A DNA stretch of 50,042 bases from Patescibacteria group bacterium (GTDB taxonomy: Bacteria > Patescibacteriota > Minisyncoccia > UBA6257 > 2-01-FULL-56-20): the NCBI GenBank assembly GCA_038058095.1, contig JBBUBW010000009.1, forward strand, positions 1 through 50,042. Direction: 5' to 3'. The notes below the pieces were generated by a model that had not been told where the DNA came from, made no database searches, and saw nothing but the letters and a program-made list of their open reading frames with translations. Positions 3,731 through 45,982 of this stretch are shown here, one piece after another. Made by a program: the position numbers and the translations under genes. Position 1 is the stretch's first letter; each line of letters begins with the position of its first letter.

Positions 3731-3807
3731 AAATGTAAATCTATTCTATCACTTCCAAAGCAATCTTAAAACACATTCGAGAAATATCCTCAAAAAAACA
3801 GCCCCGG

Positions 3808-28559: not shown

Positions 28560-28595
28560 TTACTATTATTATAGTCTCAAAAACCAATAAAGAAA

Positions 28596-28672
28596 TCCCC
28601 AGCCCTAGAACTAATTGTGAAATATCTGCAACTCCTGAAATTACAGCCACCTCCTAGGGTGAAGTAGTAGGG
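28596..28672. repeat. degenerate CCCCGTAC-family element X
   Basis: ACTAATTGTGAAATATCTGC (28610-28629) is identical to 34459-34478, and similarity continues for about 23 more nt. The right arm is only partly complementary. Confidence 0.6.
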
Positions 28673-28674
28673 GT

Positions 28675-29448
28675 TCACTCCAAGACCGTAGCCAATCTCA
28701 CAATTTCGTCTATTGATAAATTTTGCGGCCGGTCGCTCGGTTTCACTCCTTCTTTCTCTAAAACCTCTAAAATCTTTTCCCGAGTCCATCCATTTTCACC
28801 TTTGGCCACTAAATTATTCAAAATCGTTTTTCTTGGCTGTTGAAACAATATTCGGACCATTCTATAGTATTTTTTTTCATCAACCTCAAACCTACCACCT
28901 AAAACCTGCAACCTAATTACTGCCGAATCCACTTCCGGTGGGGGCGAAAAAAGTTTCGCCTGAAGATAGTCGACAATTTTTGGTTCCGCCCAAAACTGAA
29001 CCGATGCCGCAAGCCGGTTCATCTTCGGCGGCTCGGCCGTTATTCTAATCGCCACCTCTTTTTGGATCGTTAAAACACAAATTTCTGGTTTATTCTCAAG
29101 CTCACTAATTACTCGCAATAAATGTCCTGTTATATAGTAGGGGATATTGCCTACAATTTTATAAGTTTTTAACTTTTCTCTTTTAGTTTTTAGCTTTTCT
29201 AGGGCATCACCTTCAACAATTTCAACATTTTTATCTTCTCCAAATTTATTTCTTAATAATTCCACAAAATCTTTATCTCTCTCAATCGCAATTATTTTTA
29301 ACCCTTCTGCCTTTAGTTTTTCTGTCAGCTCTCCGTGCCCCGCGCCAATTTCAATCACCGTATCTCCCGGTTCCAAATTCAACGCTTCCGCAATTTTTAG
29401 AAGTGTCGTTCTATCTTTCAAAAAATGTTGCCCCAGTTTTCTTCTCAT
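28675..29448 (-). CDS. rsmA: 16S rRNA (adenine1518/1519-N6)-dimethyltransferase RsmA/KsgA
   Basis: MRRKLGQHFL N-terminus, EIGAGHG SAM motif and NIPYYIT. Confidence 0.9.
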   Translation of the reverse strand: MRRKLGQHFLKDRTTLLKIAEALNLEPGDTVIEIGAGHGELTEKLKAEGLKIIAIERDKDFVELLRNKFGEDKNVEIVEGDALEKLKTKREKLKTYKIVGNIPYYITGHLLRVISELENKPEICVLTIQKEVAIRITAEPPKMNRLAASVQFWAEPKIVDYLQAKLFSPPPEVDSAVIRLQVLGGRFEVDEKKYYRMVRILFQQPRKTILNNLVAKGENGWTREKILEVLEKEGVKPSDRPQNLSIDEIVRLATVLE

Positions 29449-29452
29449 CTTT

Positions 29453-29486
29453 ATCTATAACCTACAACCTAACACCTAGAACCTAG
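29453..29486. repeat. ACCT-rich block E4 (TATCTATAACCTACAACCTAACACCTAGAACCTAG)
   Basis: It lies 4 nt upstream of the rsmA start on the coding strand and overlaps the helicase stop. Confidence 0.7.
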
Positions 29487-31357: not shown

Positions 31358-31381
31358 TTGCTTACTGTTGCGTACATCCTG

Positions 31382-31511
31382 CCCCGTAGGGAACAGTGAA
31401 AATATAACCCTGCGATATTTTCACCTACTATATACGTCTATAACAGGGAAAGTTTTAGGTATTATCGCACATACCTAAAAATACACGAAAATACCCTTAT
31501 TCCCTATGGGG
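31382..31511. repeat. CCCCGTAC-family long hairpin H4
   Basis: Arms CCCCGTAGGGAA and TTCCCTATGGGG, with one G-U pair. The 3' end CACGAAAATA...TTATTCCCTATGGGGTAT parallels H3. Confidence 0.6.
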
Positions 31512-31535
31512 TATATAGGCCTAAGTCCATACTCG

Positions 31536-31631
31536 CCCCGTTAGATTCTGAGTAATTTAACTGTTGGCAAAATATAGCAGGAAACTAATATAAAACAACA
31601 GCTTCATTTTTTAAATAAGAATCTATTGGGG
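31536..31631. repeat. CCCCGTAC-family hairpin H4b
   Basis: Arms CCCCGTTAGATTCT and AGAATCTATTGGGG, plus an inner CTGTTG/CAACAG helix. Confidence 0.5.
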
Positions 31632-31741
31632 TTTACTAGCTTCTATCTTTCAAAAACATTCCTCCGTCGTATTAATAATAAGTTATTCCCCAAGATTTCC
31701 CCATTACTAATTTTAAAATGATATAAAATACGTAAGCTTCT

Positions 31742-32320
31742 ATGGATCTCCAACCTCTTCAAACCAACAAATATAGCGGGAAAACAAAGGCTTATTCCCT
31801 AAAAACCTACCATTCCTTAGTCAATTGGATAACTTCCGGGCTAACCCTTAGGGAATGGTATCTGCACGCCCAAACCTACGGCACCACCTCCTTCGTAACC
31901 AACCGACTTATTTTCAGTTGTATTCTCGGTTTGCTAGTACCTCTAGTTCTTATCGGCTCCATAAACGGGCGCCTAGAAGATAATCTCATTTATCTTCACA
32001 ATTTAGGCCGAGTGGGCATTATCCCCAACCGACAAATTGGAACCACTAACCTTCCTCCTATTTTCGCAGCCATCGCTGAATGCGAATCCGGCGGCTCTCA
32101 ATATGATTCTTATGGTCAAGTGGTAAGAGGGCGAGTAAATCATCACGATGTTGGCCTTTACCAAATTAACGAAGTCATCCACCAAAACGCCATCGCCCAA
32201 ACCGGAGTTGATATCTATAACGAAGAAGGGAATGCCCAGTTCGCTCGCTATCTTTATGAAGCCGAAGGGCTTTACCCTTGGCGATCTTCCCAATATTGCT
32301 GGTCTCGATATTTAAATTAA
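31742..32320 (+). CDS. lytic transglycosylase-like protein (Rpf/SLT-type catalytic motif)
   Basis: 192 aa. The AECESGG...DVGLYQIN motif resembles transglycosylase-like/SLT domains. There is one internal hydrophobic segment. Confidence 0.55.
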   Translation: MDLQPLQTNKYSGKTKAYSLKTYHSLVNWITSGLTLREWYLHAQTYGTTSFVTNRLIFSCILGLLVPLVLIGSINGRLEDNLIYLHNLGRVGIIPNRQIGTTNLPPIFAAIAECESGGSQYDSYGQVVRGRVNHHDVGLYQINEVIHQNAIAQTGVDIYNEEGNAQFARYLYEAEGLYPWRSSQYCWSRYLN

Positions 32321-32332
32321 AAAGCGAAAGAA

Positions 32333-32397
32333 CCCCGTACTAAAATTCGACTTTTTCAGAGCTGGCAGTTTACGCTGTCGAAGTTTTAGTATCGGGG
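32333..32397. repeat. CCCCGTAC-family hairpin H5 (between convergent genes)
   Basis: Arms CCCCGTACTAAAATTCGAC and GTCGAAGTTTTAGTATCGGGG. It could also act as a bidirectional terminator. Confidence 0.6.
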
Positions 32398-33924
32398 CTA
32401 AACTTCCTCTCTTAGCCGGTAGCTGAAAGCTTCCGCTAAATGATTTTCCGAAACTCCTTCTTTTTCTTCCAAGTCCGCAATCGTGCGCGCCACTTTTAAT
32501 AATCGGTAATATCCTCGAGGAGAAAGCCGGGCTTTATCGAAAGTTTTCAAAAAATTCTCTGCCGCCGGCTCAAGCTGTATTAATTCTTCCGTTTGCTTTG
32601 CGCTCATCTCGGCATTGGTTTTGATTTTCAAATGGCCGAATCTTTTTTCTTGAACTTTTCGGACTGCCTGAATTCTTTTCTTTATTTCCAGACTGGTCGG
32701 TTTTAGATTTTTATTTTCTCTAAGCTCCGCGATTTTAACTCTCGGCACTTTTATTTGTAGATCAATCCGGTCAAGTAACGGCCCCGAAATTTTCTTTTGG
32801 TATCTCAACACTTCGTAAGCCGTGCACCGACATTCTTTTTCGTCATCGCCGTAAAAACCGCACGGGCAAGGGTTCATCGCCGCCACGAGCGAAAACTTCG
32901 CGGGGAAAATTAGCGTGCCCTTCGCGCGAGCGACGTGTACCACTCCCGATTCAAGCGGCTGTCTCAAAGATTCCAAAATATTTTTCTGGAACTCCGGCAC
33001 TTCGTCCAAAAAAAGTATTCCTCGATGAGCCAAACTAATTTCCCCCGGCTTAGGGTAACTGCCTCCGCCTACAACCGCGATAAGCGACGCCGTCTGGTGT
33101 GGCGTCCTGAAAGGCCTAATAGACATCAGCCCTCCCGGGTTAAGCCCCGCCGAGCTGTAAATTTTAGTTACCTCGATTGCTTCTTGAAGCGATAAGTCCG
33201 GCAAAATACCCACCATCGCTTGCGATAGCAAACTTTTTCCCACTCCCGGCGGACCGATCATCAGTAGGTTATGCCCGCCAGCCGCCGCGATTATCATCGC
33301 GCGCTTGGCATTTTCCTGTCCTTTAATTTCCGAAAAATCCGGCACCTCACTTGCCGGGGTTTTCATTGGATTAAAAACCGCCGGGCTAATTTCTTTTCTC
33401 TCTTCCAAAAAATCAATCGCTTCCTGTAGATTTTCTAGCGGAATCACTTTCAAATCTTTAACCACTGCCGCCTCGTTCGCATTCTCTTTTGGAAGCAGAA
33501 CATACTGAAAATTTTTATCTTTAGCCAACTGGGCAATATTGAGCGCTCCCGAAATCGGCCGTAGTCTTCCATCCAAAGCCAACTCTCCTAAAAGAATTTT
33601 ATCGCTTGCATCAAATTGTTTTATCTGCCCCGTCGAAAGCAAATATCCAAGCGCGATTGCCAAGTCGTACTGCGACCCGGCTTTTTTAACATCGGCGGGC
33701 GCCAAGTTAATAGTGATTTTCCTGTTTTCACGGTTCGGCGGTTTCACTCCCGCGTTTTTAAGCGCTGAGTTTACCCGCTCCTTAGCTTCGTTCAAAGCCT
33801 TATCCGCCAGCCCTACTATATTAAACGCATGAAGGCCGACGTTTAAGTCAACCTCCACTTCAATTAACTGCGCGTTGATCCCTTCCAGTTCCGCTGAGTA
33901 AACTTTTGATAAGTTCTTAATCAT
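32398..33924 (-). CDS. comM: YifB/ComM family Mg-chelatase-like AAA+ ATPase
   Basis: Lon-like N-terminus, Walker A GPPGVGKS, and LFLDE. The ATG at 33924 (MIKNL...) is preferred. Confidence 0.85.
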   Translation of the reverse strand: MIKNLSKVYSAELEGINAQLIEVEVDLNVGLHAFNIVGLADKALNEAKERVNSALKNAGVKPPNRENRKITINLAPADVKKAGSQYDLAIALGYLLSTGQIKQFDASDKILLGELALDGRLRPISGALNIAQLAKDKNFQYVLLPKENANEAAVVKDLKVIPLENLQEAIDFLEERKEISPAVFNPMKTPASEVPDFSEIKGQENAKRAMIIAAAGGHNLLMIGPPGVGKSLLSQAMVGILPDLSLQEAIEVTKIYSSAGLNPGGLMSIRPFRTPHQTASLIAVVGGGSYPKPGEISLAHRGILFLDEVPEFQKNILESLRQPLESGVVHVARAKGTLIFPAKFSLVAAMNPCPCGFYGDDEKECRCTAYEVLRYQKKISGPLLDRIDLQIKVPRVKIAELRENKNLKPTSLEIKKRIQAVRKVQEKRFGHLKIKTNAEMSAKQTEELIQLEPAAENFLKTFDKARLSPRGYYRLLKVARTIADLEEKEGVSENHLAEAFSYRLREEV

Positions 33925-33957
33925 TCTACAACCTAACACCTACAACCTTTAACCTAA
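33925..33957. repeat. ACCT-rich block E5 (TCTACAACCTAACACCTACAACCTTTAACCTAA)
   Basis: It abuts the comM start and overlaps the last codons of the upstream gene. Confidence 0.65.
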
Positions 33958-34281
33958 TTTCTTACACTTCGCGCACAATTCCGACTCCGGCACAATCTCT
34001 AAAACCTCTTTCGAAATTTCTCCTCCGCATTTCACGCATTTACCGTAGGTGCCGTTTTGTATCCTCAAGAGCGCTCCCTCAATCTCTTCCCTCCTCGTTC
34101 TAAACGCGTGGCTTATGCCCAGTTGGTTGCCCATCTCCTCCGCCTCGTCCGATTCTTCATCTCCGCCGTCAATATCACCTCCCATATCCACCAGCTTCTC
34201 ATGCTCCTCAATCTCCTTATCGAGCTTCGCCTTTTCCGCCTCCAGTATTTCTTTATATTTTTTAATCTCGTCTTTAGTCAT
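33949..34281 (-). CDS. DksA/TraR-family C4 zinc-finger protein
   Basis: 110 aa with an acidic coiled-coil N-terminus and CVKCGGEI...CAKC. Confidence 0.75.
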   Translation of the reverse strand: MTKDEIKKYKEILEAEKAKLDKEIEEHEKLVDMGGDIDGGDEESDEAEEMGNQLGISHAFRTRREEIEGALLRIQNGTYGKCVKCGGEISKEVLEIVPESELCAKCKKLG

Positions 34282-34451
34282 TTTATTTTAGTTTCAATGT
34301 CTCGTCGGCTTGCCGAGAGGTTACAAAGCAGGAAGCTAAAATAACCCTGAGCAAGTCCACGAGCCGAAGGGTTTCCTTCGGCCATATCCCGCCCACCTGT
34401 GGTGGAGTTTTTGATTTCCCTCAATCTTATCACATCAATTTAAAAAGCCAA

Positions 34452-34539
34452 CCCCGGTACTAATTGTGAAATATCTGCGATTCTTGAAGTCGTAGCCATC
34501 TTTTTAAAACAAAACATCTTTTCACAATTAGTTCCGGGG
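34452..34539. repeat. CCCCGTAC-family hairpin H6
   Basis: Arms CCCCGGTACTAATTGTGAAA (34452-34471) and TTTCACAATTAGTTCCGGGG (34520-34539). 19 of 20 positions are complementary. Confidence 0.7.
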
Positions 34540-34622
34540 CTAACCCAGCACTCCAACTTCGGTTAATCCACAAAGGCGCATATTTTAATTTCAATCTTCT
34601 CTGAGGCCGCTAAAACCAGGTA

Positions 34623-34651
34623 TTGACATATAACTCTTTATTTGGTAAAAT
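34623..34651 (+). promoter_or_regulatory. sigma70-type promoter TTGACA-17 nt-TAAAAT (target gene 1)
   Basis: Hexamers at 34623-34628 and 34646-34651. The same hexamers and spacing recur at 35732-35760. Confidence 0.6.
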
Positions 34652-34692
34652 ACAAACGTTCTTTGATAATAAAATATTCTAGGTTCTAACTT

Positions 34693-34743
34693 ATGAAACG
34701 AGTATTTAGTGGGTTTTTAGAGTCCATTAAATACTCGTTTCAT
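34693..34743 (+). promoter_or_regulatory. 5' leader hairpin of target gene 1
   Basis: ATGAAACGAGTATTTA...TAAATACTCGTTTCAT forms a perfect 16-bp stem. A homologous stem lies in the leader of target 2. Confidence 0.55.
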
Positions 34744-34804
34744 GAAGAGCGAGCTGCGTCGCGCCAGTTGCGCGATATATTTCAAATACCACAGGAGGTA
34801 TGCG

Positions 34805-35575
34805 ATGGAACCCATCGTGAGCCGTACCCTGTCAGTGCACAACGAGCACGAATTTCTTTTAAAGCTCGAAGCCGCAGGTCTCAACCAAGCACTTTCCCAG
34901 AGAGTCGTTGACTCAAAGGAGAATGATCTCGGCAAGAAAATAGTGAGACTCATCGAGAACGGCGGTTTCGAACCGACGACGAGCCAAAAACGCGCCCGCG
35001 AGATCATGGGGCGCAACATGTTCGGCGTCGAAGAAGCAATCCGGCATTTCGGCGTGAATCCCACGAGGCAACAGGCCGCCGCTCTTTCGGAAATCCCATT
35101 TTCCGAGGCAACCCTCGAGCAGTGCAAGAACACGCACGTTCTCGTTGCGGTCTTCCCCCTCTCGATCCTCGAGATTCGCGGTAAGGTTCCCAGTGACCAG
35201 CATCTGTTTTATGTTCAAGACTGGTACAACAAGGAATCCTTCGCCAAAGACAAAGGGGAACTGGAGTGGCAGCTCATTTGCAAAACTCCCGTCGACAACT
35301 CGACGTCGAGGACGTGGGACGAGCAACAGGCTTTGCTCTCCGACAAAGATCAGACGCCCAAAGCTCGTGTGATGGTCTACGCGATCATCTGCCATTTCCT
35401 CTCGACAGGCGAACGGCTGTTCGAGAAAATCTACGTTCGCTGTTCGGATGTGGATTCGGACGGCCGCCGGGTCCTCGTCGGTCGCTTCGCTTCCGACGGC
35501 TTGCTCGTCAACGACCTCTGGGACGGCCACCGCTACGACAACATCGGCCTCGCCTCTGCCCGGAAGTCCGAGTAG
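34805..35575 (+). CDS. DGR target protein 1 (VR-bearing, no signal peptide)
   Basis: AGGAGG lies 7 nt before the ATG at 34805. The C-terminus ...VDSDGRRVLVGRFASDGLLVNDLWDGHRYDNIGLASARKSE is encoded by VR1. Confidence 0.85.
   Translation: MEPIVSRTLSVHNEHEFLLKLEAAGLNQALSQRVVDSKENDLGKKIVRLIENGGFEPTTSQKRAREIMGRNMFGVEEAIRHFGVNPTRQQAAALSEIPFSEATLEQCKNTHVLVAVFPLSILEIRGKVPSDQHLFYVQDWYNKESFAKDKGELEWQLICKTPVDNSTSRTWDEQQALLSDKDQTPKARVMVYAIICHFLSTGERLFEKIYVRCSDVDSDGRRVLVGRFASDGLLVNDLWDGHRYDNIGLASARKSE
35448..35568 (+). repeat. DGR variable repeat VR1
   Basis: 121 bp that aligns without gaps to the TR. There are 20 mismatches and 15 fall at TR adenines. The 3' 75 bp differ only at adenines. Confidence 0.9.
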
Positions 35576-35587
35576 AACCTTGAAACT

Positions 35588-35604
35588 GGAGGATTTGATC
35601 CTCC
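35588..35604 (+). other. hairpin downstream of VR1 (GGAGGAT-TTG-ATCCTCC)
   Basis: It starts 20 nt after the end of VR/TR homology. The same sequence occurs after VR2. It is absent after the TR. Confidence 0.6.
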
Positions 35605-35614
35605 TCATTACCTT

Positions 35615-35655
35615 GAGCCTCCGCGCGATTTTTTCGCCGGAGGCTCATCTTATTT
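35615..35655 (+). terminator. rho-independent terminator of target gene 1
   Basis: GAGCCTCCG...CGGAGGCTC stem followed by ATCTTATTTTATT. Confidence 0.6.
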
Positions 35656-35731
35656 TATTAACTCGTCAGTAAGAAACTAAAAAGAATATCAGCTAACTTA
35701 GTTATTCCCCTTTTTACAACGAGCCCTAGCA

Positions 35732-35760
35732 TTGACACAGAGCCCATTATTCTGTAAAAT
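35732..35760 (+). promoter_or_regulatory. sigma70-type promoter TTGACA-17 nt-TAAAAT (target gene 2)
   Basis: Hexamers at 35732-35737 and 35755-35760. Confidence 0.6.
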
Positions 35761-35805
35761 ATTTCTGCTCTTTAATAATCAAATATTCGAGATTCTGTCT
35801 ATGGC

Positions 35806-35862
35806 ATGAGGCGAGTGTTTAAAATGTTATAACTCATATAGTTTTTTAAGCACTCGCCTCAT
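35806..35862 (+). promoter_or_regulatory. 5' leader hairpin of target gene 2
   Basis: ATGAGGCGAGTG...CACTCGCCTCAT forms a 12-bp stem. Confidence 0.5.
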
Positions 35863-35922
35863 AAAAAGCGAGTCTGAACCGGACAGATATCCGATAAATT
35901 TCAAATCAGAAGGAGGCACACG

Positions 35923-36735
35923 ATGCCACAAAGCATCGCACACCCCAAACCGACTGCCGTGCTTGACGGGACGGCAAAGTTTTTCCGCGTGATGGCGAAC
36001 GCCGGTGTTCCCTTTTCGGCGTTTACTCCACCAATGCAGAGCGTAGCGAAAAGAGCCAACCTCGCGGAGTTCCTCAAGCTCGGTTGTCCCAAAGTCGACG
36101 GCAATGGCGTTATCAACACAACGCCATCGGAACACGACCTTGCGCGCCTCATTTTAGCCAGCGATTTCATCACGCCGGAAGAAGTGGCGCAAACTCGCGG
36201 ACTCACCTATGCGGATGAGCAACTCGAAGCGTTGCAAACAAGCCTGCCGCCACTCGAAGTGATCACTTGGTGTCGCGGGAACGGTTACTTACTGCTTCCC
36301 AATCCACCCGAGGCAATGTCGCTTCTCGGAGTCCGAGATCTCAACCGAGCCCTCTTTTCTTCAAAGGAAGGCGGGTGGTATGCTGACCAAGCTTTCGCGG
36401 CGAAGGAAACGACTGAGGCCGCAACTTGGCTTATGATCCGCAAGGGCATCGTGCCGAACTCCACGGATAAGAAATGGAAGGAACAAATTCCACTCATCTC
36501 TGACGTTGAACGGGTACCGAATGCCGCCGAGTTCTCCTGGGCGCTCACGATCTACAAAGAAGTCCGGGGCGTCTACCTTATGGGTGGAATCTACGCCCGC
36601 ACTTCAAGTGTGGATTCGGACGGCCTCCGGGTCCGCGTCGGCCACTTCGATTCCGACGGCTTGGACGTCCACAGCTACTGGGACGACCATCGCTATGACG
36701 GCTTCGGTCTCGCCTCCGCTCGGAAGTCCGAGTAG
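35923..36735 (+). CDS. DGR target protein 2 (paralog of target 1)
   Basis: AGGAGG lies before the ATG. The C-terminus ...VDSDGLRVRVGHFDSDGLDVHSYWDDHRYDGFGLASARKSE is encoded by VR2. Confidence 0.85.
   Translation: MPQSIAHPKPTAVLDGTAKFFRVMANAGVPFSAFTPPMQSVAKRANLAEFLKLGCPKVDGNGVINTTPSEHDLARLILASDFITPEEVAQTRGLTYADEQLEALQTSLPPLEVITWCRGNGYLLLPNPPEAMSLLGVRDLNRALFSSKEGGWYADQAFAAKETTEAATWLMIRKGIVPNSTDKKWKEQIPLISDVERVPNAAEFSWALTIYKEVRGVYLMGGIYARTSSVDSDGLRVRVGHFDSDGLDVHSYWDDHRYDGFGLASARKSE
36609..36728 (+). repeat. DGR variable repeat VR2 (more diverged)
   Basis: 23 mismatches to the TR, 14 at TR adenines and 9 elsewhere. Three non-A changes and one adenine-site change fall in the 3' IMH-like segment. 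Confidence 0.8.
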
Positions 36736-36748
36736 AACCTTGAAACCT

Positions 36749-36765
36749 GGAGGATTTGATCCTCC
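36749..36765 (+). other. hairpin downstream of VR2 (GGAGGAT-TTG-ATCCTCC)
   Basis: Identical to the hairpin after VR1. Confidence 0.6.
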
Positions 36766-36775
36766 TCATTACCTT

Positions 36776-36826
36776 GAGCCTCCGGCGCGAATTTTTTTCG
36801 CACACGCCGGGGGCTCTTTCTTTTTA
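36776..36826 (+). terminator. rho-independent terminator of target gene 2
   Basis: GAGCCTCCGGCG...CGCCGGGGGCTC stem followed by TTTCTTTTTAT. Confidence 0.65.
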
Positions 36827-37133
36827 TAAACCTTGTGATATGCTTTTTTTATCTTGCTAATGCAGGCGCGGTTACGGCTTCGCCTCGCGAGATATCTCAC
36901 CTTTGCCTGCCCGCCGAAGTTATCGGCGCAGGCGGGAGATGTCGCCAGAGCGCCACCGTTTACGGATTGCGGCAGAGCGCGATGAAGGATAGAGATGGAC
37001 TTCTTGCTCGCTTCTAGTGGAGATGTCCCGCCAAATCGGGACTGCTCTCGAATAAAATTCAGGAACGAAAGGCAATAGGCTCCTTTTGAGCGGTAACCCT
37101 TAAGTTTCGGTGCCATGGGCGGTAGCGGGCAAT

Positions 37134-37254
37134 ATGTGGATTCGGACGGCAACCATGTCTACGTTGGCAACTTCGATTCTGACGGCTTGAACGTCAACAA
37201 CAACTGGGACGACAACCGCAACGACAACATCGGCCTCGCCTCTGCCCGGAAGTC
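37134..37254 (+). repeat. DGR template repeat (TR)
   Basis: 121 bp with 31 adenines and 9 AAC codons in the VR reading frame (...NHVYVGNFDSDGLNVNNNWDDNRNDNIGLASARKS). No plausible ORF leads into it; a stop lies at 37094-37096 in frame. Confidence 0.9.
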
Positions 37255-37260
37255 ACCCCT

Positions 37261-37650
37261 CTATTCGTTTTTGAATGCCCCGCCAAGCGGGGCATTCTCT
37301 CGTCGGTCTTTCGAGGATTTTATCCAGCCACCCAACATCCGGCCGATCTCATCCACCGGTTCTTCGAGTGAAACGTATTTCTTGTTGTCGATTACCCTGA
37401 CCTCTTTCATTAACCGGAGAAATACTCGCAAAAAGTTTAGCTTGAGACTGACTTTTTCAAGGATCGGCACTTTCTCTGATTTGTAAGTTTGACTCGCAAG
37501 GAGGATGCCTTCAAGGATGTCGAGAATAATATTCTCGCATCGTTGCCAGATGCTGTGGCGATCCTGTTTAGTAATACCATCCCGATAACCATAAAAAGTT
37601 TTATATAAATCATAGGTTTTTTTGAAGATCGGGATATCGAAGTCGTCCAT
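37261..37650 (-). CDS. avd: DGR accessory variability determinant (Avd), four-helix bundle
   Basis: 129 aa. Basic helices and the C-terminal EIGRMLGGWIK compare with phage BPP-1 Avd EVGRILGSWIA (recalled). It lies directly between the TR and the RT. Confidence 0.8.
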   Translation of the reverse strand: MDDFDIPIFKKTYDLYKTFYGYRDGITKQDRHSIWQRCENIILDILEGILLASQTYKSEKVPILEKVSLKLNFLRVFLRLMKEVRVIDNKKYVSLEEPVDEIGRMLGGWIKSSKDRRENAPLGGAFKNE

Positions 37651-37668
37651 TTGTTTTATTATTTATTA

Positions 37669-38568
37669 ATGAAAATTTATAATAATTTATTTGAACAGAT
37701 TACCTCTTTGGAGAATCTTTTTTCTGCGTGGGACGCTTTCAAGTCCGACAAACGGAAAAAACCGGACGTAATGCGGTTTGAATGGCAACTTGAGGAAAAT
37801 ATTTTCAGGTTGCACCGGGAACTCAAAAGTGCCACGTACAGGCATGGCCCGTACTCCGGTTTTTATGTAACCGATCCCAAACAACGCCATATCCATAAAG
37901 CTTTGGTGCGAGATCGGGTTTTGCATCACGCGGTTTTTTCGGTGATCAACCCCATTTTTGAGGAGATGTTTATCCCAACGTCGTTTTCGTGCCGAGTGGG
38001 GTATGGCACTCATCGCGGCGTTGAAGCCCTTGCTGGCATGATGCGCCAAGTGAGTAAAAACAACACGCGGACGTGCCACGTATTGAAGTGCGATGTGAGA
38101 AAGTTTTTTGACAGCGTGGACCACCGGATACTCCTCGGTATTCTTACGAAACGTATTAAAGATGAAAAAGTGATGTGGCTCCTGCGATCTATTGTTGAAA
38201 GCTATTCGAGTGAAATAGGGAGTGGAAAAGGGATTCCGATAGGGAATTTGACCTCCCAGCTTTTTGCCAATATCTACATGAATGAGTTCGATAGGTATAT
38301 GAAACATATGGTGAAGGCAAAACACTATCTGCGATACACCGATGACTTTGCGATTGTTTCTGAAAACCGAACTTATTTAGAGGAACTACTGCCTAAGATC
38401 AAAGAATTTCTTTCAAACAACCTGGCAATCAATCTACACCCCAATAAAATCATACTTTCGACCTTCTGTCAAGGCGTAGATTTTCTTGGTTACGTTTCTT
38501 TTCCTCAATACCGACTCCTCCGTACAAAAACAAGGTGGAGAATTTTTTCGAGACTGCGAAAAAACTAA
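37669..38568 (+). CDS. DGR-type reverse transcriptase (C-terminus apparently interrupted)
   Basis: RT motifs LKCDVRKFFDSVDH, GIPIGNLTSQLFANIYMNEFD (DGR-specific [ILV]GxxxSQ) and YLRYTDDFAIV. The ORF ends at a TAA right after an A AAA AAC run. Confidence 0.9.
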   Translation: MKIYNNLFEQITSLENLFSAWDAFKSDKRKKPDVMRFEWQLEENIFRLHRELKSATYRHGPYSGFYVTDPKQRHIHKALVRDRVLHHAVFSVINPIFEEMFIPTSFSCRVGYGTHRGVEALAGMMRQVSKNNTRTCHVLKCDVRKFFDSVDHRILLGILTKRIKDEKVMWLLRSIVESYSSEIGSGKGIPIGNLTSQLFANIYMNEFDRYMKHMVKAKHYLRYTDDFAIVSENRTYLEELLPKIKEFLSNNLAINLHPNKIILSTFCQGVDFLGYVSFPQYRLLRTKTRWRIFSRLRKN

Positions 38569-38570
38569 AA

Positions 38571-38699
38571 AGTTACCGCGGTGAATTGATTTCAAGAACT
38601 TCTCTCGAGTAATCCCTGCAGTCCTATCTCGGCGTTCTTTCTCACGGCAATACTTTCAAATTACGCGAGAGTATTCTTAATGAATTCTGGTTTAGTTGA
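38571..38699 (+). pseudogene. out-of-frame remnant of the RT C-terminus
   Basis: The -1 frame reads SYRGELISRTSLE*SLQSYLGVLSHGNTFKLRESILNEFWFS*. As far as I recall, it resembles the conserved C-terminal tail of DGR RTs. Confidence 0.5.
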
Positions 38700-38753
38700 G
38701 GTTCGGTTCGTTTTAATGTAGTAAGTTATCAGTCGTAAGTTATTAGTTAAAAG

Positions 38754-40481
38754 TTACTTCAACACCCTCACCGTTTTAAGATTCCACTTATAACTCTCCT
38801 TAAACCTATCCGCCGGGTCAGTTACTAGTTTTCCTTGAATTCCCTTTAAATCATTCTCCGCCACCAACACGTAATTAGGCGAGTAAAGGAAAATCGCCGG
38901 ATAGTCTTGAGTAATCAATCCCTGAAGTTGCGCTAAGGTGCTTTCGCGATCTTGCTGCGTTGGATTTTGCCCTAGTTTATCAAGCAACGCGTCCACCGCC
39001 TTATTGCTATAAAGCGACAAATTCAATCCCGGAAAAAATCTTTCCGTTGAGCGCCAGAATGGAGTTAAATCCAAATCATCTCCCAAGAAATTTCCATAAA
39101 GCAACATTTCATAATCCCGGTTTTTAATAATATTATCGAGCGCGTCGCCTTCCGGCACTTTAGATATGTTTACCTTAAAACCAATTCCTTCCCACGTCGC
39201 CTTAAGTTTGTCGGCTGTCGCCGTCAAAAACGGAATCTCGGGCACCGTCAAATTTATTTCTAAATTAACTTTTGTTTTGTTGATAGTTTTCTGCCTCACT
39301 CCCGGAAGCGAGTTATCGGTTCCCGAACCATCGCTTAAATTCCATCCCGACGCCTCAAGAACCCGAATCGCCTCGTCTTTATCTTGAGCTACTAAACTAT
39401 CACTTCCTACGCCCTGAACTACCGGTCCACTCACGACTTGTCCATCTCCTCCCAAAACTTCTTTAACCAGCGCTTCTCGCGGAGTCGAAAGGCTCATCGC
39501 TTTTCTTACCGCGATATCTTTAAGAATCGTATTCTTCGATTGGTTTATAAAAACGGCGTAATAGTTTGGAGAAGGGAATGACAATTTCTCGAAAGGCCGT
39601 TTTATTTTCTCCACCTCTTGCGGATCCAGCCCGCCAGCTCCGCCAATCATTCCGCGGTTAAAAGCGGCCACTAAGTTTTCTTTATCCTGATAAAATTTAA
39701 AACTTATATTTTCTATTAAAGCCGCTTCGCCTGGATAATCCGGATTGATTTCCAGTTCGTAGCGAGTGATAAATCCTCGCCGGTCTTTATCGTAATTTTT
39801 GAAGCGGTAGAAACCGCTTCCCACTGGGCTTAAATTGTAGTCCGAAAGGCGCCAATTGATTGGCGGAACATCGTTAAAAATATGTTTTGGCAACAAGTAA
39901 AGATTTTTTATCTCGTGCTCTAAAGCCGACGTCCACTCCGTACTGAAATTCAGACTTTCTCCTTGGGCTTTAGCCCTCTGAATTTCTAGTATCGGGGCCG
40001 TCCCGGGTGCTCTTAACTGAACCTCCAATTCGCTCATTCGCTCCGCTCCCACGCCTCTCCATTTCGAGATAAGAGGGGATTGAGCACTTTCGTCTTGGAT
40101 TTTTTGGATAGTGAAAACCACGTCGTCGCTTGTAAGCGGCTTCCCGTCCGTCCAAACCAAACCTTCCTTAAGGCGCACTTTCCAGAAAAGCCCGCTTTTA
40201 TCCAATTCAATTTGGCTGGCTAAGTCCTCTAGTTTCGCGAAAACCAATCGCACCAAAGATTTATCGACATCACTCGCAGCCGAAACGGGATTTACGGCAG
40301 ACGGCTGGCCGATGAACCCTTCTATATATTCTCCGCCTCGAGTCGGCATCGCTTTAGTCGCGCCCCTAACTACCACAATTATTAAAACCAAGCCGGAGAC
40401 GATTACCAGCGCTGCTGCCGCCAAAAATATTTTTCGTTCCTTATCGGAAAATGCGAGAAAAATTTTCTTTAGTTTATCCAC
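38754..40481 (-). CDS. ABC transporter substrate-binding protein, family 5 (peptide/nickel type), membrane-anchored
   Basis: 575 aa with an N-terminal TM anchor. Length and sequence pattern (WTDGKPLTSDDVVFT..., INPDYPG...) resemble SBP_bac_5 proteins. Confidence 0.65.
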   Translation of the reverse strand: MDKLKKIFLAFSDKERKIFLAAAALVIVSGLVLIIVVVRGATKAMPTRGGEYIEGFIGQPSAVNPVSAASDVDKSLVRLVFAKLEDLASQIELDKSGLFWKVRLKEGLVWTDGKPLTSDDVVFTIQKIQDESAQSPLISKWRGVGAERMSELEVQLRAPGTAPILEIQRAKAQGESLNFSTEWTSALEHEIKNLYLLPKHIFNDVPPINWRLSDYNLSPVGSGFYRFKNYDKDRRGFITRYELEINPDYPGEAALIENISFKFYQDKENLVAAFNRGMIGGAGGLDPQEVEKIKRPFEKLSFPSPNYYAVFINQSKNTILKDIAVRKAMSLSTPREALVKEVLGGDGQVVSGPVVQGVGSDSLVAQDKDEAIRVLEASGWNLSDGSGTDNSLPGVRQKTINKTKVNLEINLTVPEIPFLTATADKLKATWEGIGFKVNISKVPEGDALDNIIKNRDYEMLLYGNFLGDDLDLTPFWRSTERFFPGLNLSLYSNKAVDALLDKLGQNPTQQDRESTLAQLQGLITQDYPAIFLYSPNYVLVAENDLKGIQGKLVTDPADRFKESYKWNLKTVRVLK

Positions 40482-40516
40482 GTTTCAAATTCGTCAAAGC
40501 TAGCGCTCTTAGTTTA

Positions 40517-40729
40517 TTAACTTAAAAAATTATAAATCGCCAAAGCCACAAAAACCACCGCCAAAACAATCGTTCCCCTGAAAATCATTTTTTCCATTCC
40601 CCTCCGTGTTTGGTAAAATCCCATTCCCTCTCCACCAAAAATTCCCGAAAGTCCCGCTGACCTCTCTTGAAGTAGAATTAAAACCACTAGCGCCGCTGCC
40701 ACCACAATTTGAGCGATAAGTAGAATCAT
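40517..40729 (-). CDS. secG: preprotein translocase subunit SecG
   Basis: 70 aa with two TM helices. The loop LLQERSAGLSGIFGG is typical of SecG. Confidence 0.8.
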   Translation of the reverse strand: MILLIAQIVVAAALVVLILLQERSAGLSGIFGGEGMGFYQTRRGMEKMIFRGTIVLAVVFVALAIYNFLS

Positions 40730-41082
40730 GATTTTTTAAATATTAAATGAATGAAGAAATTCACAAACCCGATAATCACCGCCGCGTAAAGCAGCGTCAG
40801 AACCCCATCAATACTAAGGTTTTTTGAAAAACTGTCAAGAATATAGAGTAAAAGCATATTAACCACAATCAGCCCTAGCCCTAAAGTGAAAATAATGACC
40901 GGCCCCAAAATTAATTTTAGAACCGGCTTCAAAATAAAATTAAGCAAAGCGAAAATCGCTGCGAGTACCAAAGTTTGGCCGAACCCGCCCAAAATCTGAA
41001 ATTTCGGGAAAAAATAAGCTATTCCCGTAAAAGCCGCCGCATTTAGGAGGATAATAACCGCCGTTTTTAGTATCCACTTCAC
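40726..41082 (-). CDS. phage holin family IV (DUF360/YvlD-like) membrane protein
   Basis: 118 aa with four TM segments. The segment LNFILKPVLKLILGPVIIFTLGL is characteristic of the family. Confidence 0.65.
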   Translation of the reverse strand: MKWILKTAVIILLNAAAFTGIAYFFPKFQILGGFGQTLVLAAIFALLNFILKPVLKLILGPVIIFTLGLGLIVVNMLLLYILDSFSKNLSIDGVLTLLYAAVIIGFVNFFIHLIFKKS

Positions 41083-41112
41083 TCTTCTATTATAACCCTA
41101 GTTTCCAAAAAC

Positions 41113-42642
41113 TTAAATTATTTCATGAAGTAAGCTTCTCCCCGTCATCTCTGCCGGTTTTTGGATTTTCATCAGTTCAAGAATTGTGGGTGCCACATCG
41201 CAAAGCACTCCAATCGTTTCCGAATCCAAACTTTGCCAGTTCACAAATTTTTTATTTCTAAGTTCGGAAACCACCAAATAAAGCGGGACCGGATTGGGAT
41301 CGTGCTGTGTTTCCGGCGCGCCGGTAAATGGATTAACCATCTGCTCAATATTTCCGTGATCCGAGGTGATAATCAACATCGTATCCGTCGCCAGTACAGT
41401 TTTTATCACTCTCCCGATTTGAGCATCAATCGCTTTAACCGTTTCGAGCGCCGCCTGGTAATCGCCGGTGTGGGCAATCGTGTCCGGATTGGCGTAGTTA
41501 ACTAAAATAAAATCAAAAGCTCGGTTTTCCAATGCTTCGACAACTCGGTCCGTAATCGCCGCCGCCATCATCTCCGGGTGTTCTTCTGGGTGAGGTGTCT
41601 TAACCGAAGGCACAAAAACTCGGTATTCATTTTTAAAAGGTGTCTCTATGTAGCCGTTGAAAAAATAAGTCACGTGGGCGTATTTGTAACTTTCCGCTAA
41701 TCGCAATTGAGTTTTACCCGCGTCACTTATCGCTTTACCCAAAGGAATTTCAATCTTCTCTGGCGGAAAAGCCACCGGTACCGTAAACGCGTCTTCGTAT
41801 TGTGTCATTGTGGAAACGTACAAATTTTGGAATTTTTTAGTCGGGAACTTGTCGAAATCTTTAATAATAAAAGATTCCGCTATCTGCCGGATGCTGTCTT
41901 CTCTGAAGTTGAAAAAAATCACTCCATCGCCGTCTTTAATGAATCCATTTTCTCGAAAAACTATCGGTGGCACAAATTCTTCGTTTAAATTTTTCTGGTA
42001 AGTTTCTTGGATGATCGGCGTCGCGTCTGAAACCAAAGGCGCCCCCGGCCCGGTCATAGTTTCGTATGCCCTCTCCGTCAGTTTCCAGTTCTTTTCTCTA
42101 TCCATTCCGTAATACCGGCCCATCAGCGTTACTAATTTGTCGTGCGGTATTTTTTCGAGCACCTTCTCTAACCTGAAAGGGGTGCCATCTTTTCCGTCGG
42201 AGAAAAGATGCATCTTCACTTCGATATTTTCTTTCTTCCCCATCTCCACTAACGCCAGAAGATGTTCGAGGCAGGCATGAACCGTTCCCTCGGTTAAAAG
42301 CCCAATCAAATTTACCGCTCCACTATTGGTTCGCGCATGCGTAAAGGCGTCTTTCAAAGCTTTATTCTCAAAAAAACTCCCGTCTTTTATTGATAATGTA
42401 ATTCTCGGAAAATATTGGTAAATAACTTTTCCTGCTCCAAGCGTAAGGTGGCCCACTTCGCTATTACCCACCTCTCCCCACGGTAACCCAACGCTAATTC
42501 CCGAGGCCTGCAGGCTCGTTACCGGGAAATTCTCTTCCATCCACTTGAAGCTCTCTGGCTGGACCGCATGGACTGGATTTGTCTCATTTTTTTGGCCCAA
42601 TCCCCAGCCGTCCAAAATTATAAGCAACATTGTCCGTCGCAT
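41113..42642 (-). CDS. gpmI: 2,3-bisphosphoglycerate-independent phosphoglycerate mutase
   Basis: 509 aa with LIILDGWG, GNSEVGHLTLGAG and TSDHGN. Confidence 0.9.
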   Translation of the reverse strand: MRRTMLLIILDGWGLGQKNETNPVHAVQPESFKWMEENFPVTSLQASGISVGLPWGEVGNSEVGHLTLGAGKVIYQYFPRITLSIKDGSFFENKALKDAFTHARTNSGAVNLIGLLTEGTVHACLEHLLALVEMGKKENIEVKMHLFSDGKDGTPFRLEKVLEKIPHDKLVTLMGRYYGMDREKNWKLTERAYETMTGPGAPLVSDATPIIQETYQKNLNEEFVPPIVFRENGFIKDGDGVIFFNFREDSIRQIAESFIIKDFDKFPTKKFQNLYVSTMTQYEDAFTVPVAFPPEKIEIPLGKAISDAGKTQLRLAESYKYAHVTYFFNGYIETPFKNEYRVFVPSVKTPHPEEHPEMMAAAITDRVVEALENRAFDFILVNYANPDTIAHTGDYQAALETVKAIDAQIGRVIKTVLATDTMLIITSDHGNIEQMVNPFTGAPETQHDPNPVPLYLVVSELRNKKFVNWQSLDSETIGVLCDVAPTILELMKIQKPAEMTGRSLLHEII

Positions 42643-42940
42643 CGCTCTATTATAAAAGATTTCTTTAATCTTGACTAACCGGACAAAAAGACCTAAACTT
42701 TAAAAGTTACTAATTGTCGCCTTTTTAATCTTTTGGAACCTTGGAAAAGATTTTGCTAGAGAATTTAACCTATAACACTTCGTTTTCGATTAATTAAATC
42801 CTTTTTCGAGGACTAGTTTCGTTCAAAGAATAATTAAGGTGGCTAGTAACTAAAAAGTCACAATTTTTTATTCCTAAAAAATTCAAACCTATTTTTGTGA
42901 ATTAAAATCACAATGAAGAATTTAGGAAAACAACAAATCA

Positions 42941-44467
42941 ATGTTTACAGGAACATCAGCTCTCGCAGTGGGTGGGTTAATTTTGGGTGGGATTATTGGC
43001 TATTTAGTTCGCCAATTATTCACGTCTCGGGCCGCAAGCTCAATTGAGCAAAAAACTAAGCTCAAACTCGAAGACGCCGAAGAGCGCGCCAAACGAATTA
43101 TTTTGGAATCGGAGAATAAAGCCGCTGATCTTTTGGCGGATACTAGGAAGGAGAGTCGAGAGCAGAAAATCAAACTTGACAGCCTCGAAGAAAGAATTCT
43201 TAAACGCGAGGAAATTTTAGATCGGAAACTTGTAGTTTTATCTTCAGATGAAACCTCTCTCAAATCTAAAACTGAAGAATTAAAGAAAAAAGAAGTAGAC
43301 ATCGCTGGTCTTAGAAATGAAATAGAAACCCGGCTCGAAAAAGTGAGTGGTTTGAGCCGCGGAGAAGCGCTTCAAAAGCTCTTTGCTGAAATCAAGGAAG
43401 CTCAAAGCCAAGAACTCGCTAACCTCCTCCAAAAACTGGATAAAGAGCGGCGCGACGCGGTTGAAAAGAAAACTGCGGAGATTATCACCACTTGCCTCGA
43501 GCGCTACGCACGATCGCAAGTGGCCGAAATTACCACCACCACCTTTCCTTTAGCCGACGAAGAGTTAAAAGGGAAAATCATCGGGCGGGAAGGTAGGAAC
43601 ATTCGAGCACTTGAGCGCGCCACCGGCGTTGAGTTTATTATCGACGAAACTCCCGATAGCGTTGTTATCTCTTCTTTCGATCCGCTCCGCCGTGAAATCG
43701 CCCGCCTCGCTCTCGAGAAACTGATTAAAGACGGTCGCATTCAACCCGCTAAAATTGAAGAAAAAGTTGAAGAAGCCAAACAAGAACTTAACAAACGGAT
43801 TATGGAAGTCGGGGAAGCCGCCGTTATGGAAGTCGGCATTTACGATTTACCCAAAGAAATTATTCAGCTTCTCGGCCGCTTAAATTTCAGAACCAGCTAT
43901 GGCCAAAATGTTTTAATGCATTCGGTTGAGATGGCGCACTTAGCCGGGATGATGGCCTCCGAGCTCGGCTTAAATGTTGAGGTTGCTAAAAGGGGTGCTC
44001 TTTTACACGATATTGGAAAAGCCATCGATCACGAAGTAGAAGGCACTCATATAGAGCTGGGTCGCAAGATTTTGAAGAAATATAATATTCCCGAGGCAGT
44101 CATCGAGGCCATGCAGTCTCATCACGAAGATTATCCTTACGCCATTCCTGAGGCCTATATTGTCACCGCCGTTGACGTCCTTTCTGGTGCCCGCCCTGGA
44201 GCGAGGCGGGATTCGCTCGAGCACTATCTTAAACGCCTCGCTGATTTAGAAAAAATAGCCACCGAATTTCAAGGTGTAAAAAGCGCCTACGCCATTTCAG
44301 CCGGGCGAGAACTTAGGATTTTCGTAACACCCGAAAAAATAGACGACTTCAAAGCCCTAGAGCTAGCCCGAGAAATTGCCAACCGTATCCAATCTGAGTT
44401 AAAATATCCCGGTGAGATCAAAGTCGTTGTGGTAAGAGAAATGCGTGCTGTCGAGTATGCCAAGTAA
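42941..44467 (+). CDS. rny: ribonuclease Y
   Basis: 508 aa with an N-terminal TM, a coiled coil, a KH domain (GKIIGREGRNIRALE) and an HD domain (LLHDIGKA). Confidence 0.9.
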   Translation: MFTGTSALAVGGLILGGIIGYLVRQLFTSRAASSIEQKTKLKLEDAEERAKRIILESENKAADLLADTRKESREQKIKLDSLEERILKREEILDRKLVVLSSDETSLKSKTEELKKKEVDIAGLRNEIETRLEKVSGLSRGEALQKLFAEIKEAQSQELANLLQKLDKERRDAVEKKTAEIITTCLERYARSQVAEITTTTFPLADEELKGKIIGREGRNIRALERATGVEFIIDETPDSVVISSFDPLRREIARLALEKLIKDGRIQPAKIEEKVEEAKQELNKRIMEVGEAAVMEVGIYDLPKEIIQLLGRLNFRTSYGQNVLMHSVEMAHLAGMMASELGLNVEVAKRGALLHDIGKAIDHEVEGTHIELGRKILKKYNIPEAVIEAMQSHHEDYPYAIPEAYIVTAVDVLSGARPGARRDSLEHYLKRLADLEKIATEFQGVKSAYAISAGRELRIFVTPEKIDDFKALELAREIANRIQSELKYPGEIKVVVVREMRAVEYAK

Positions 44468-44468
44468 G

Positions 44469-44558
44469 ATAGGTGACAGGTTGAAGGTTTTAGGTTTTAG
44501 AGAGGTTACCTTCTCCCGAGTTACTAGCACCTAACACCTAAAAACTATAACCTAATCC
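44469..44558. repeat. paired AGGT-rich / ACCT-rich blocks E6
   Basis: ATAGGTGACAGGTTGAAGGTTTTAGGTTTTAGAGAGGTTA ... CACCTAACACCTAAAAACTATAACCTAATCC. Both orientations are present with no gene between them. Confidence 0.6.
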
Positions 44559-44560
44559 AT

Positions 44561-45982
44561 ATGTTGCTTAAACTCTCAAAATTTTGCCTTTATGCCGCCG
44601 TTTTCAGCGTGATAATTGTGGTCACTAACACCTTTTTCCCATTTATCGGTGTTAAGTACTATTTCTTTAGGACTGCAGTCAGTCTCTCTCTTTTATTCTT
44701 CTTCTTATGGTGGGCTTTTGAGGCGGCCAAAGGTGAAGTTCTCGAACGCTTCCGTAAAATTGCGCGGAACCCGCTTTTTATCGCGGTTTCTGTCTTCGTC
44801 TTTTTTTATCTCTTAGCCTCTCTTTTTGCTTACGATTCTCACTCGGCTTTTTGGTCTAATTTTGAAAGAGGAGAGGGAGGATTCCAGATGATCCACTATT
44901 ATCTTTTCTTCCTGCTTTTAAGTCTTATTATTCGCGACAAAAAAGATTGGAAGAGAATTTTTCAACTCTCGATTATTGCCGGGGTCTTAATGATTCTCTA
45001 TGGAGCCCTTGCCCAACTTGGGATTGTAAATGGGCTTATTAGCCCCTACCAAGGAGGGGCGCCTTCTGGTTTTTGGAACCGTTTTACTGAAGCTCGTTTC
45101 CAAGGGTCGCTTGGCAATCCTGCCTATGTGGCGCCCTATCTTATATTCACGATATTTTATACTGCCTATCTTTGGTTTGTGTCTCAAATCAAGAAGCGGT
45201 GGGTCAAACACCTCTCCTATGGTTCTTTATTTTTTTTCCTTCTCTTTTTCTTCTATGTCAGCAAAACCCGGGGAGCTTTAGTGGGTTTAGGTATTGCTAC
45301 TCTGGTTTTTCTAATCTATCTTTTAATATCCTCCCAAAAAGAAACCAAAAAATGGGCCATCTTTGGACTTTCCCTCTCCGCCTTTTTCATAGTTTTAGTC
45401 GCCGTGGTGTCTTTTTATCTTTCTCCGCTTTGCGCAAAATCAAATTGCTCATCTTTCGCGAAAAATTTATCATCAAACCGGCTTCTTACTTTAAGTCTCG
45501 GCAATGAATCTTTCCAAACCCGTCTCTGGACGTGGGGTTCTGCCTGGCAGGGTTTCAAAGAGCGTCCTCTTCTTGGTTGGGGACCGGAAAATTTCAGCAG
45601 TGTTTTTGATAAACATTTTGATCCTCGCCACTACATTGCCGGAACTAACTCGGAAACTTGGTTCGACCGGGCCCACAGCGTTGTCTTTGATTACCTCGCC
45701 GAAACCGGCCTTCTCGGATTCCTAAGTTACCTTGCGATTTTCGTTGTTTTCTATTGGCAATTGTTTAAAAAAATAAAACTTCCTAAACCCGAAAACACAG
45801 AAACTCATCTAGCTGGTTCTTCCCTAAAACCTCTCCTTACCGGCCTTATTATTGTTCTTCCTATTGGATATTTCATTCAAGGATTAGCCCTTTTTGACGT
45901 CCTCCCCATTTACTTGAACCTCTTCCTCTTTCTAGCATTCAGCGTTTACCAATTAAATAAACACTATGAACCAACTCTATAA
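44561..45982 (+). CDS. O-antigen ligase/polymerase (Wzy_C)-like membrane protein
   Basis: 473 aa and polytopic, with an SKTRGALVGL motif and a large loop. Confidence 0.6.
   Translation: MLLKLSKFCLYAAVFSVIIVVTNTFFPFIGVKYYFFRTAVSLSLLFFFLWWAFEAAKGEVLERFRKIARNPLFIAVSVFVFFYLLASLFAYDSHSAFWSNFERGEGGFQMIHYYLFFLLLSLIIRDKKDWKRIFQLSIIAGVLMILYGALAQLGIVNGLISPYQGGAPSGFWNRFTEARFQGSLGNPAYVAPYLIFTIFYTAYLWFVSQIKKRWVKHLSYGSLFFFLLFFFYVSKTRGALVGLGIATLVFLIYLLISSQKETKKWAIFGLSLSAFFIVLVAVVSFYLSPLCAKSNCSSFAKNLSSNRLLTLSLGNESFQTRLWTWGSAWQGFKERPLLGWGPENFSSVFDKHFDPRHYIAGTNSETWFDRAHSVVFDYLAETGLLGFLSYLAIFVVFYWQLFKKIKLPKPENTETHLAGSSLKPLLTGLIIVLPIGYFIQGLALFDVLPIYLNLFLFLAFSVYQLNKHYEPTL

Follow-up and report, generated by a model that had tools for sequence, protein, structure and literature searches.

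The question raised by this locus is whether the reverse transcriptase (RT) of a diversity-generating retroelement (DGR), whose reading frame closes at a TAA directly behind an in-phase A AAA AAC heptamer and closes again in the -1 frame, is still made in full length or has decayed. The window, by which is meant the whole 50,042-nt stretch of DNA analysed, comes from a Patescibacteria assembly of 0.76 Mb in 50 contigs (96% complete), and the DGR RT that it encodes is very probably a recently formed pseudogene, produced by ordinary gene decay and not by recoding, with two lesions on the lineage of this strain. The positions given in the original prediction proved exact on re-reading: the RT frame ends at TAA 38566-38568 after CGA AAA AAC, the heptamer at 38559-38565 is in X XXY YYZ phase, and the -1 frame meets a TAA at 38610-38612 before the tail runs on to the TGA at 38697-38699. 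The RT gene is thus laid out as follows.

37669..38568, + strand: truncated DGR RT reading frame, 299 aa, consisting of 298 native residues and one N, then TAA
38559..38565, + strand: six A followed by C (A AAA AAC), where one nucleotide is deleted in comparison with the A7 of the uninterrupted allele
38565..38609, + strand: next 15 RT codons, now in the -1 frame (LKSYRGELISRTSLE), equal to residues 300-314 of the uninterrupted allele
38610..38612, + strand: nonsense TAA replacing the nearly invariant Q315 (CAA)
38613..38699, + strand: last 28 RT codons (SLQSYLGVLSHGNTFKLRESILNEFWFS) with the invariant SYLG..SH thumb motif, and the original TGA (38697-38699)

The RT frame is listed from a TTG at 37651, and the ATG at 37669 agrees with the N-termini of the homologs (MKIYNNLFEQ...). 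CGA AAA AAC TAA occupies 38557-38568, the stop codon abutting the heptamer, and translation in the -1 frame gives (A K K) L K S Y R G E L I S R T S L E up to the second TAA. The tail was discarded as a separate ORF, because its frame lacks a start codon (ATG, GTG or TTG) and the ORF list has no entry of 30 aa or more in this part.

The assignment of the gene to a DGR relies on the motifs and fold of the RT, the adenine bias between template repeat (TR) and variable regions (VRs) and an adjoining gene for the accessory variability determinant (Avd), all of which are present. The truncated RT matches Pfam RVT_1 (E 3.6e-23) and contains the motifs IGNLTSQ and YTDD; DGR RTs carry (I/L/V)GxxxSQ where group II intron RTs have QGxxxSP, together with a YxDD catalytic box. 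Against NCBIfam, which has no DGR-specific model, the group II intron, Drt and retron models all remained below cut-off. The other parts of the cassette are these.

37261..37650, - strand: accessory gene avd, coding for 129 aa, oriented divergently to the RT gene and uninterrupted (PF22296 bAvd, 60.4 bits at a cut-off of 40)
37136..37254, + strand: TR core, 119 nt with 30 adenines
35450..35568, + strand: VR1, at the 3' end of target gene 1 (34742-35575), with 15 adenine and 5 non-adenine mismatches (n=20)
36610..36728, + strand: VR2, at the 3' end of target gene 2 (35923-36735), with 14 adenine and 9 non-adenine mismatches (n=23)

The two target genes are paralogous, and their proteins have no match in Pfam or NCBIfam.

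That the sequence behind the two stops looks like the conserved end of DGR RTs had been put forward in the original prediction, and this likeness is borne out by an alignment of 64 sequences in which S319, Y320, G322 and H326 are invariant, and Q315, S316, Q318, L321, V323, L324, S325, A327, N338 and W341 are conserved in at least 90%, all of them located 3' of the lesions. The lost part holds the C-terminal columns with the highest conservation in the RT alignment, and the same SYLGLLSHGNTHKLREKIL motif is found at the C-terminal end of the paralogous RT that a second DGR of this genome encodes. The three RT pieces of the window align without gaps, at first with 15 and then with 63 homologs, and the aligned homologs continue through both lesion sites without interruption. 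Among the best 120 of 7587 homologs, lengths range from 328 to 407 aa and are almost all 341-350 aa, the sole 299-aa entry being the representative of the window's own cluster. The homologs, then, do not end at the position equivalent to 38568, and the downstream frame does resemble RT tails, contrary to what had been named as speaking against decay. The sources of the closest RT homologs name them Minisyncoccia, Paceibacterota, Parcubacteria or Patescibacteria.

The structural meaning of the loss was approached with an AlphaFold model of the uninterrupted allele, built on the 64-sequence alignment (pLDDT 86.4, pTM 0.81). Its best fold match in Foldseek is the RT of the Bordetella phage BPP-1 DGR, bRT (8ub7_A, TM 0.86/0.89 over 342 columns), which is also the best solved relative by sequence (phmmer E 2e-49). 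The modelled C-terminal helices 286-304, 310-324 and 330-340 form the thumb; the frameshift cuts the first of them and the nonsense codon lies within the second, and the truncation removes most of this three-helix thumb. In bRT, the thumb contacts and holds the template:primer duplex, is encircled by a 'Thumb Ring' of the DGR RNA and moves between resting and active states (bioRxiv 10.1101/2023.10.23.563531), and the thumb of DGR RTs can be aligned with that of group II intron RTs (PMC5758913). Because the product lacks most of the thumb and the SYLG..SH motif, and in view of the role of this region in bRT, the truncated RT is predicted to be inactive, a loss of activity that we infer from fold and conservation.

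The origin of both interruptions can be read from a sister allele. A 343-aa protein (P0121) in the 90%-identity cluster of the window's RT equals the window pieces except at K299, where the window has N and then a stop, and at Q315, where the window has a stop; residues 1-298 are 100% identical to the truncated RT. This uninterrupted protein is encoded on contigs L001 (Hain_H41_01um_R1) and L007 (Hain_H41_01um_R3) and on the Logan contigs L002 (SRR32696680) and L003 (ERR3858121). Over 7476 nt, L002 is 99.93% identical to window positions 37225-44699, with only five differences (four mismatches and one 1-nt gap) at 37341, in the A-run, at 38609, at 38610 and at 39937, three of which fall in the RT tail. 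The first lesion is seen as CGA AAA AAC TAA AAA GT (A6) in the window, compared with CGA AAA AAA CTA AAA AGT (A7) in the uninterrupted allele; GCGAAAAAACTAAAAAG is found in the window, L004, L005 and L006, and GCGAAAAAAACTAAAAAG in L001, L002 and L003. At the second lesion, GAA CAA in the uninterrupted allele stands against GAG TAA in the window. An outgroup whose RT is 87% identical (L032) has CGA AGA AAG CTC and GAG CAA, and since it reads both sites in frame, the in-frame state is ancestral. To judge from these alleles, the A7 tract is specific to the window's species, and the nonsense change was probably a single C-to-T transition, with a synonymous GAG-to-GAA change on the other lineage. 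A change of GAACAA to GAGTAA as one tandem double mutation was considered, but the GAG CAA of L032 makes two single transitions on different lineages at least as likely.

This comparison bears directly on programmed recoding, in which -1 frameshifting at A AAA AAC together with read-through of the TAA at 38610-38612 would supply a low level of full-length RT. The phase of the heptamer, the stop immediately after it and the authentic RT tail encoded in the downstream frames are all what such a mechanism would need. Nevertheless, the heptamer and its stop arise by a 1-nt deletion in the A7 of the sister allele, and the phase is not an independent signal, because it follows from the removal of one A from CGA AAA AAA CTA AAA. 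The aligned homologs all do without frameshift and read-through, and the frameshift is not conserved. No downstream stimulatory RNA structure was found, the 95 nt 3' of the heptamer folding no better than shuffles (-15.4 versus -14.0 +/- 2.8 kcal/mol, z -0.49). The -1 frame does not stay open to a functional C-terminus, and a slip gains only 15 codons before the second stop, which is moreover the commonest stop, TAA terminating 18 of the 33 window frames of at least 200 codons; with two independent steps of low efficiency, the product of their yields would be negligible. Recoding at this locus has, on these grounds, a probability close to nil. The same count of 18 out of 33 long frames in the window ending in TAA disposed of an alternative genetic code with TAA reassignment.

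The possibility that the true genome has A7 and CAA, and that the lesions are homopolymer or consensus errors of sequencing or assembly, draws on the position of the first lesion in a homopolymer and on the low coverage of several of the supporting metagenome contigs (cov 2-6 in their record names). The window, L006 (a Logan assembly, ERR3858116) and L005 (Hain_H43_01um_R3; 23 kb long, 3 differences from the window in 12.9 kb) all carry the two lesions together, however; L004 (Hain_H43_02um_R3) shows A6 but stops short of the TAA site, and a further contig of 57.9 kb encodes the same 299-aa product. The A6 run is therefore present in at least five separately assembled contigs (the window, the 57.9-kb contig, L004, L005 and L006), from different samples and two pipelines, and the same pipelines give A7 and CAA for the H41 samples. 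The TAA, for its part, is due to a substitution, which a homopolymer error would not explain, and all contigs covering both sites have it together with A6. The recurrence of the doubly broken haplotype in independent H43 assemblies makes an artefact a highly improbable explanation. The two other accounts offered at the outset, frameshift with read-through and assembly error, thus found no support, the first being neither conserved nor accompanied by structure and ending in the commonest stop, and the second conflicting with a haplotype that recurs. In L005, a T-to-G difference at window position 37934 changes V89 to G in the HHAVF motif of the broken RT; with a coverage of 4, it may be an error or further decay.

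The contig names place this population in the Hainich groundwater wells, H43 sampling the upper aquifer and H41 the main aquifer (data set described in PMC8672522). In the shared near-identical segment of 7475 nt, six mutational events can be distinguished:

Avd R104W
Avd W35*
the A deletion in the RT gene
the substitution at 38609 in the RT gene
the adjacent substitution at 38610 in the RT gene
one change in the SBP gene

All of these but the SBP change lie in the avd-RT cassette, which spans 1439 nt (five of six, binomial P 0.0013), from which it follows that the cassette gathers changes faster than its housekeeping neighbours; this clustering fits relaxed or reversed selection on the cassette. 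At Avd codon 104 (window 37341), R is found in the window, L032 and L036 (IGRMLGGW), and W in all four H41-type contigs. R104W is accordingly a derived change of the RT-intact H41 lineage, since L032 and L036 have R, and the window's R104 was for the same reason discarded as a third lesion. The other Avd change, W35* (TGG to TAG, 37547 C to T; window 37546-37548, minus strand), occurs in L003:322-426 and L007:10804-10908 and is a second and independent knockout of the same DGR that segregates among RT-intact strains, avd and RT being both uninterrupted in L001 and L002.

A polymorphic A-run, a second lesion close by and mutations clustered in the cassette could also be expected of a phase-variable switch, that is, a contingency locus at the A7 tract with A6 as the off and A7 as the on state, in which the TAA would be a later neutral hit locking the gene off. 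The A7/A6 length difference does separate near-identical strains, and a nearby second lesion is what an off gene would collect once constraint is lost. Against this, the A-run is not conserved, L032 reading CGA AGA AAG CTC and L036 having A6 in another register, and intermediates with only A6 or only TAA are absent among the eight contigs and the JGI metagenomes; an exact-pattern scan of the JGI metagenome contigs (A6/A7, GAR YAA) gave no match, the Hainich data being held at ENA and not at JGI. With the TAA present, moreover, slippage cannot reverse the off state. Where a contingency locus would combine a polymorphic tract with its retention in relatives and the absence of any other lesion, only the A7/A6 polymorphism is found here, and there is very little chance that the locus is such a switch.

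Ordinary decay of the RT gene, the reading preferred here, would have begun with the loss of one A from the species-specific A7 (CGA AAA AAA CTA to CGA AAA AAC TAA), probably through replication slippage, which shifts the frame after K298 and brings in a stop one codon later. A C-to-T transition, presumably the later of the two lesions, turned the nearly invariant Q315 from CAA to TAA, leaving a 299-residue product that ends within helix 1 of the three-helix thumb, without SYLG..SH. The full-length, uninterrupted RT on which a working DGR depends is missing from the window, with a frameshift after K298, a TAA at Q315 and 299 aa instead of 341-350 aa. The suggestion that the RT C-terminus is decaying and the DGR becoming inactive is in this way supported by the uninterrupted homologs, by the near-identical sister allele and by the loss of most of the thumb. 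By itself the cassette would no longer be able to rewrite VR1 or VR2; an RT supplied in trans by the second DGR of the genome may be considered a formal possibility. For annotation, the DGR of this genome is best labelled as an element with a pseudogenised RT and left out of counts of active DGRs, and the apparent "slippery site" should not be taken as a recoding signal.

The second DGR is apparently complete and lies at G000:C29:2414-4986 (L012), inserted between rpsJ and rplC in the ribosomal protein cluster, with the following parts on contig C29.

2414-3082: target gene
2969-3081: VR
3460-3572: TR
3612-3914: avd, antisense
3991-4986: RT

Its RT is uninterrupted and 53% identical to that of the window, and its TR and VR differ at 15 adenine and 2 non-adenine positions. 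The same genome has three weak bAvd-like four-helix-bundle matches below the Pfam cut-off (G000:C28:6279-6590, C43:32700-33008 and C9:21400-21711), one of which falls within the T4SS-like operon of the window.

The VRs preserve a record of earlier activity. In the H41 strains, VR2 (L001:4937-5055, L007:9863-9981) has 20 mismatches to the present TR, every one at a TR adenine (hypergeometric P ~1e-15) and some of them in the 5' GTGGATTCGGAC stretch. Because all 20 mismatches are at adenines, the RT-intact lineage must have copied the present TR into a target. Target 2 of these strains encodes 275 aa and is ~10% divergent along its whole length from the 270-aa gene of the window; between the two cluster members among the RT-intact strains no VR2 variants were found, their VRs being identical. 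VR1 is identical in the window, L005 and L008, which share the broken haplotype, and VR2 is identical in the window and L005. The VR1 of L007, the Avd knockout, is 1 nt different from that of the broken haplotype, and the VR1 of L001, in which avd and RT are uninterrupted, departs from the window's at 14 sites with a TR adenine and at one with a T. Inside VR1 of L001, a run of 10 N (L001:3876-3885) may be a scaffolding gap caused by heterogeneity of the VR reads. The non-adenine mismatches between TR and VRs had been cited as fitting the decay of the element. For VR1 this argument does not stand, because most of these mismatches are shared with RT-intact strains, and they therefore reflect older versions of the template and predate the RT lesions; for VR2 it keeps its force, in view of the contrast between 20 of 20 adenine mismatches in the H41 strains and 14 adenine plus 9 non-adenine mismatches in the window. 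Judged by these mismatches, the targets of the window carry older TR imprints.

The relationship between the H41 and H43 strains is itself heterogeneous. Upstream (5') of the DGR they are ~1% different, and up to 10% in one stretch, and the comparison of L001 and L007 with the window over 26734-44699 gives a mosaic of identities, with 99.1% at 26.7-31.4 kb, ~90% at 31.6-32.3 kb, 97.5% at 32.3-33.9 kb, ~90% in target 2 and 99.93% from TR to 44.7 kb. This pattern suggests a recent recombination of the segment comprising TR, avd, RT and the downstream region between strains. The loss of RT in H43 and the W35* stop of Avd in part of H41 could further be taken to mean that the DGR has been switched off repeatedly and independently, by selection and not by neutral decay, a reading that we regard as rather doubtful and offer tentatively; if it were true, selection would stop hypermutation once a suitable target variant had become fixed. 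Near-identical strains with both genes intact, with avd knocked out or with RT knocked out offer a natural comparison, and the Hainich reads could address the freezing of VRs after breakage of the machinery as well as selection for DGR loss.

A search of 81 genomes, 80 of them relatives and one the window's own, found RTs of the window's DGR type in 34, and most of these RTs cover the tail without stops. Internal stops are found in G006:C7:21135-22103, G060:C6:17039-18001, G013:C80:1927-2763 and G079:C2:20807-21529, and a split RT in G042:C103:436-1487; with four interrupted and one split gene among the relatives, decay of the DGR RT is not rare in this family. The closest relatives (L032:388-3125, L033, L035; L036:483-1879) keep the layout of target, TR, antisense avd and RT. 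The flanks of the DGR differ, with PfkB downstream in L032, a sigma-70 gene in L036 and an SBP_bac_5 gene in the window. Because the genomic neighbourhoods of relatives differ, either the cassette moves or its flanks have been rearranged.

When set beside known systems, the locus resembles classical -1 frameshift sites, such as the A AAA AAG of dnaX and those of IS element transposases, in having an A-rich, in-phase slippery heptamer that adjoins the 0-frame stop. It departs from them in its lack of a downstream stimulator and of conservation, in a -1 frame that closes after 15 codons, and in the existence of an in-frame ancestor allele. The agreement with the DGR of Bordetella phage BPP-1 (bRT, Avd, TR and the VR of mtd) extends to an RT fold with NTE, fingers, palm and thumb (bRT structures 8ub7 to 8ubf), an accessory protein of the bAvd family, a TR of ~120 nt and VRs at the 3' ends of targets with adenine-biased differences. 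Unlike the phage-borne BPP-1 element, that of the window is cellular, in Patescibacteria, with avd in antisense orientation between TR and RT, two target genes with no match in Pfam or NCBIfam, and an RT truncated inside the thumb. There is also a correspondence with the Patescibacteria/CPR-restricted DGR clade, clade 2 of Roux et al. 2021 (PMC8144416), with which the locus shares its Patescibacteria homologs and a small groundwater host genome (0.76 Mb); its relatives are mostly uninterrupted, in contrast to the pseudogene RT of the window. The locus is, in summary, a pseudogene copy of an element of known kind, and the clade to which it belongs has been described as rich in DGRs (PMC8144416).
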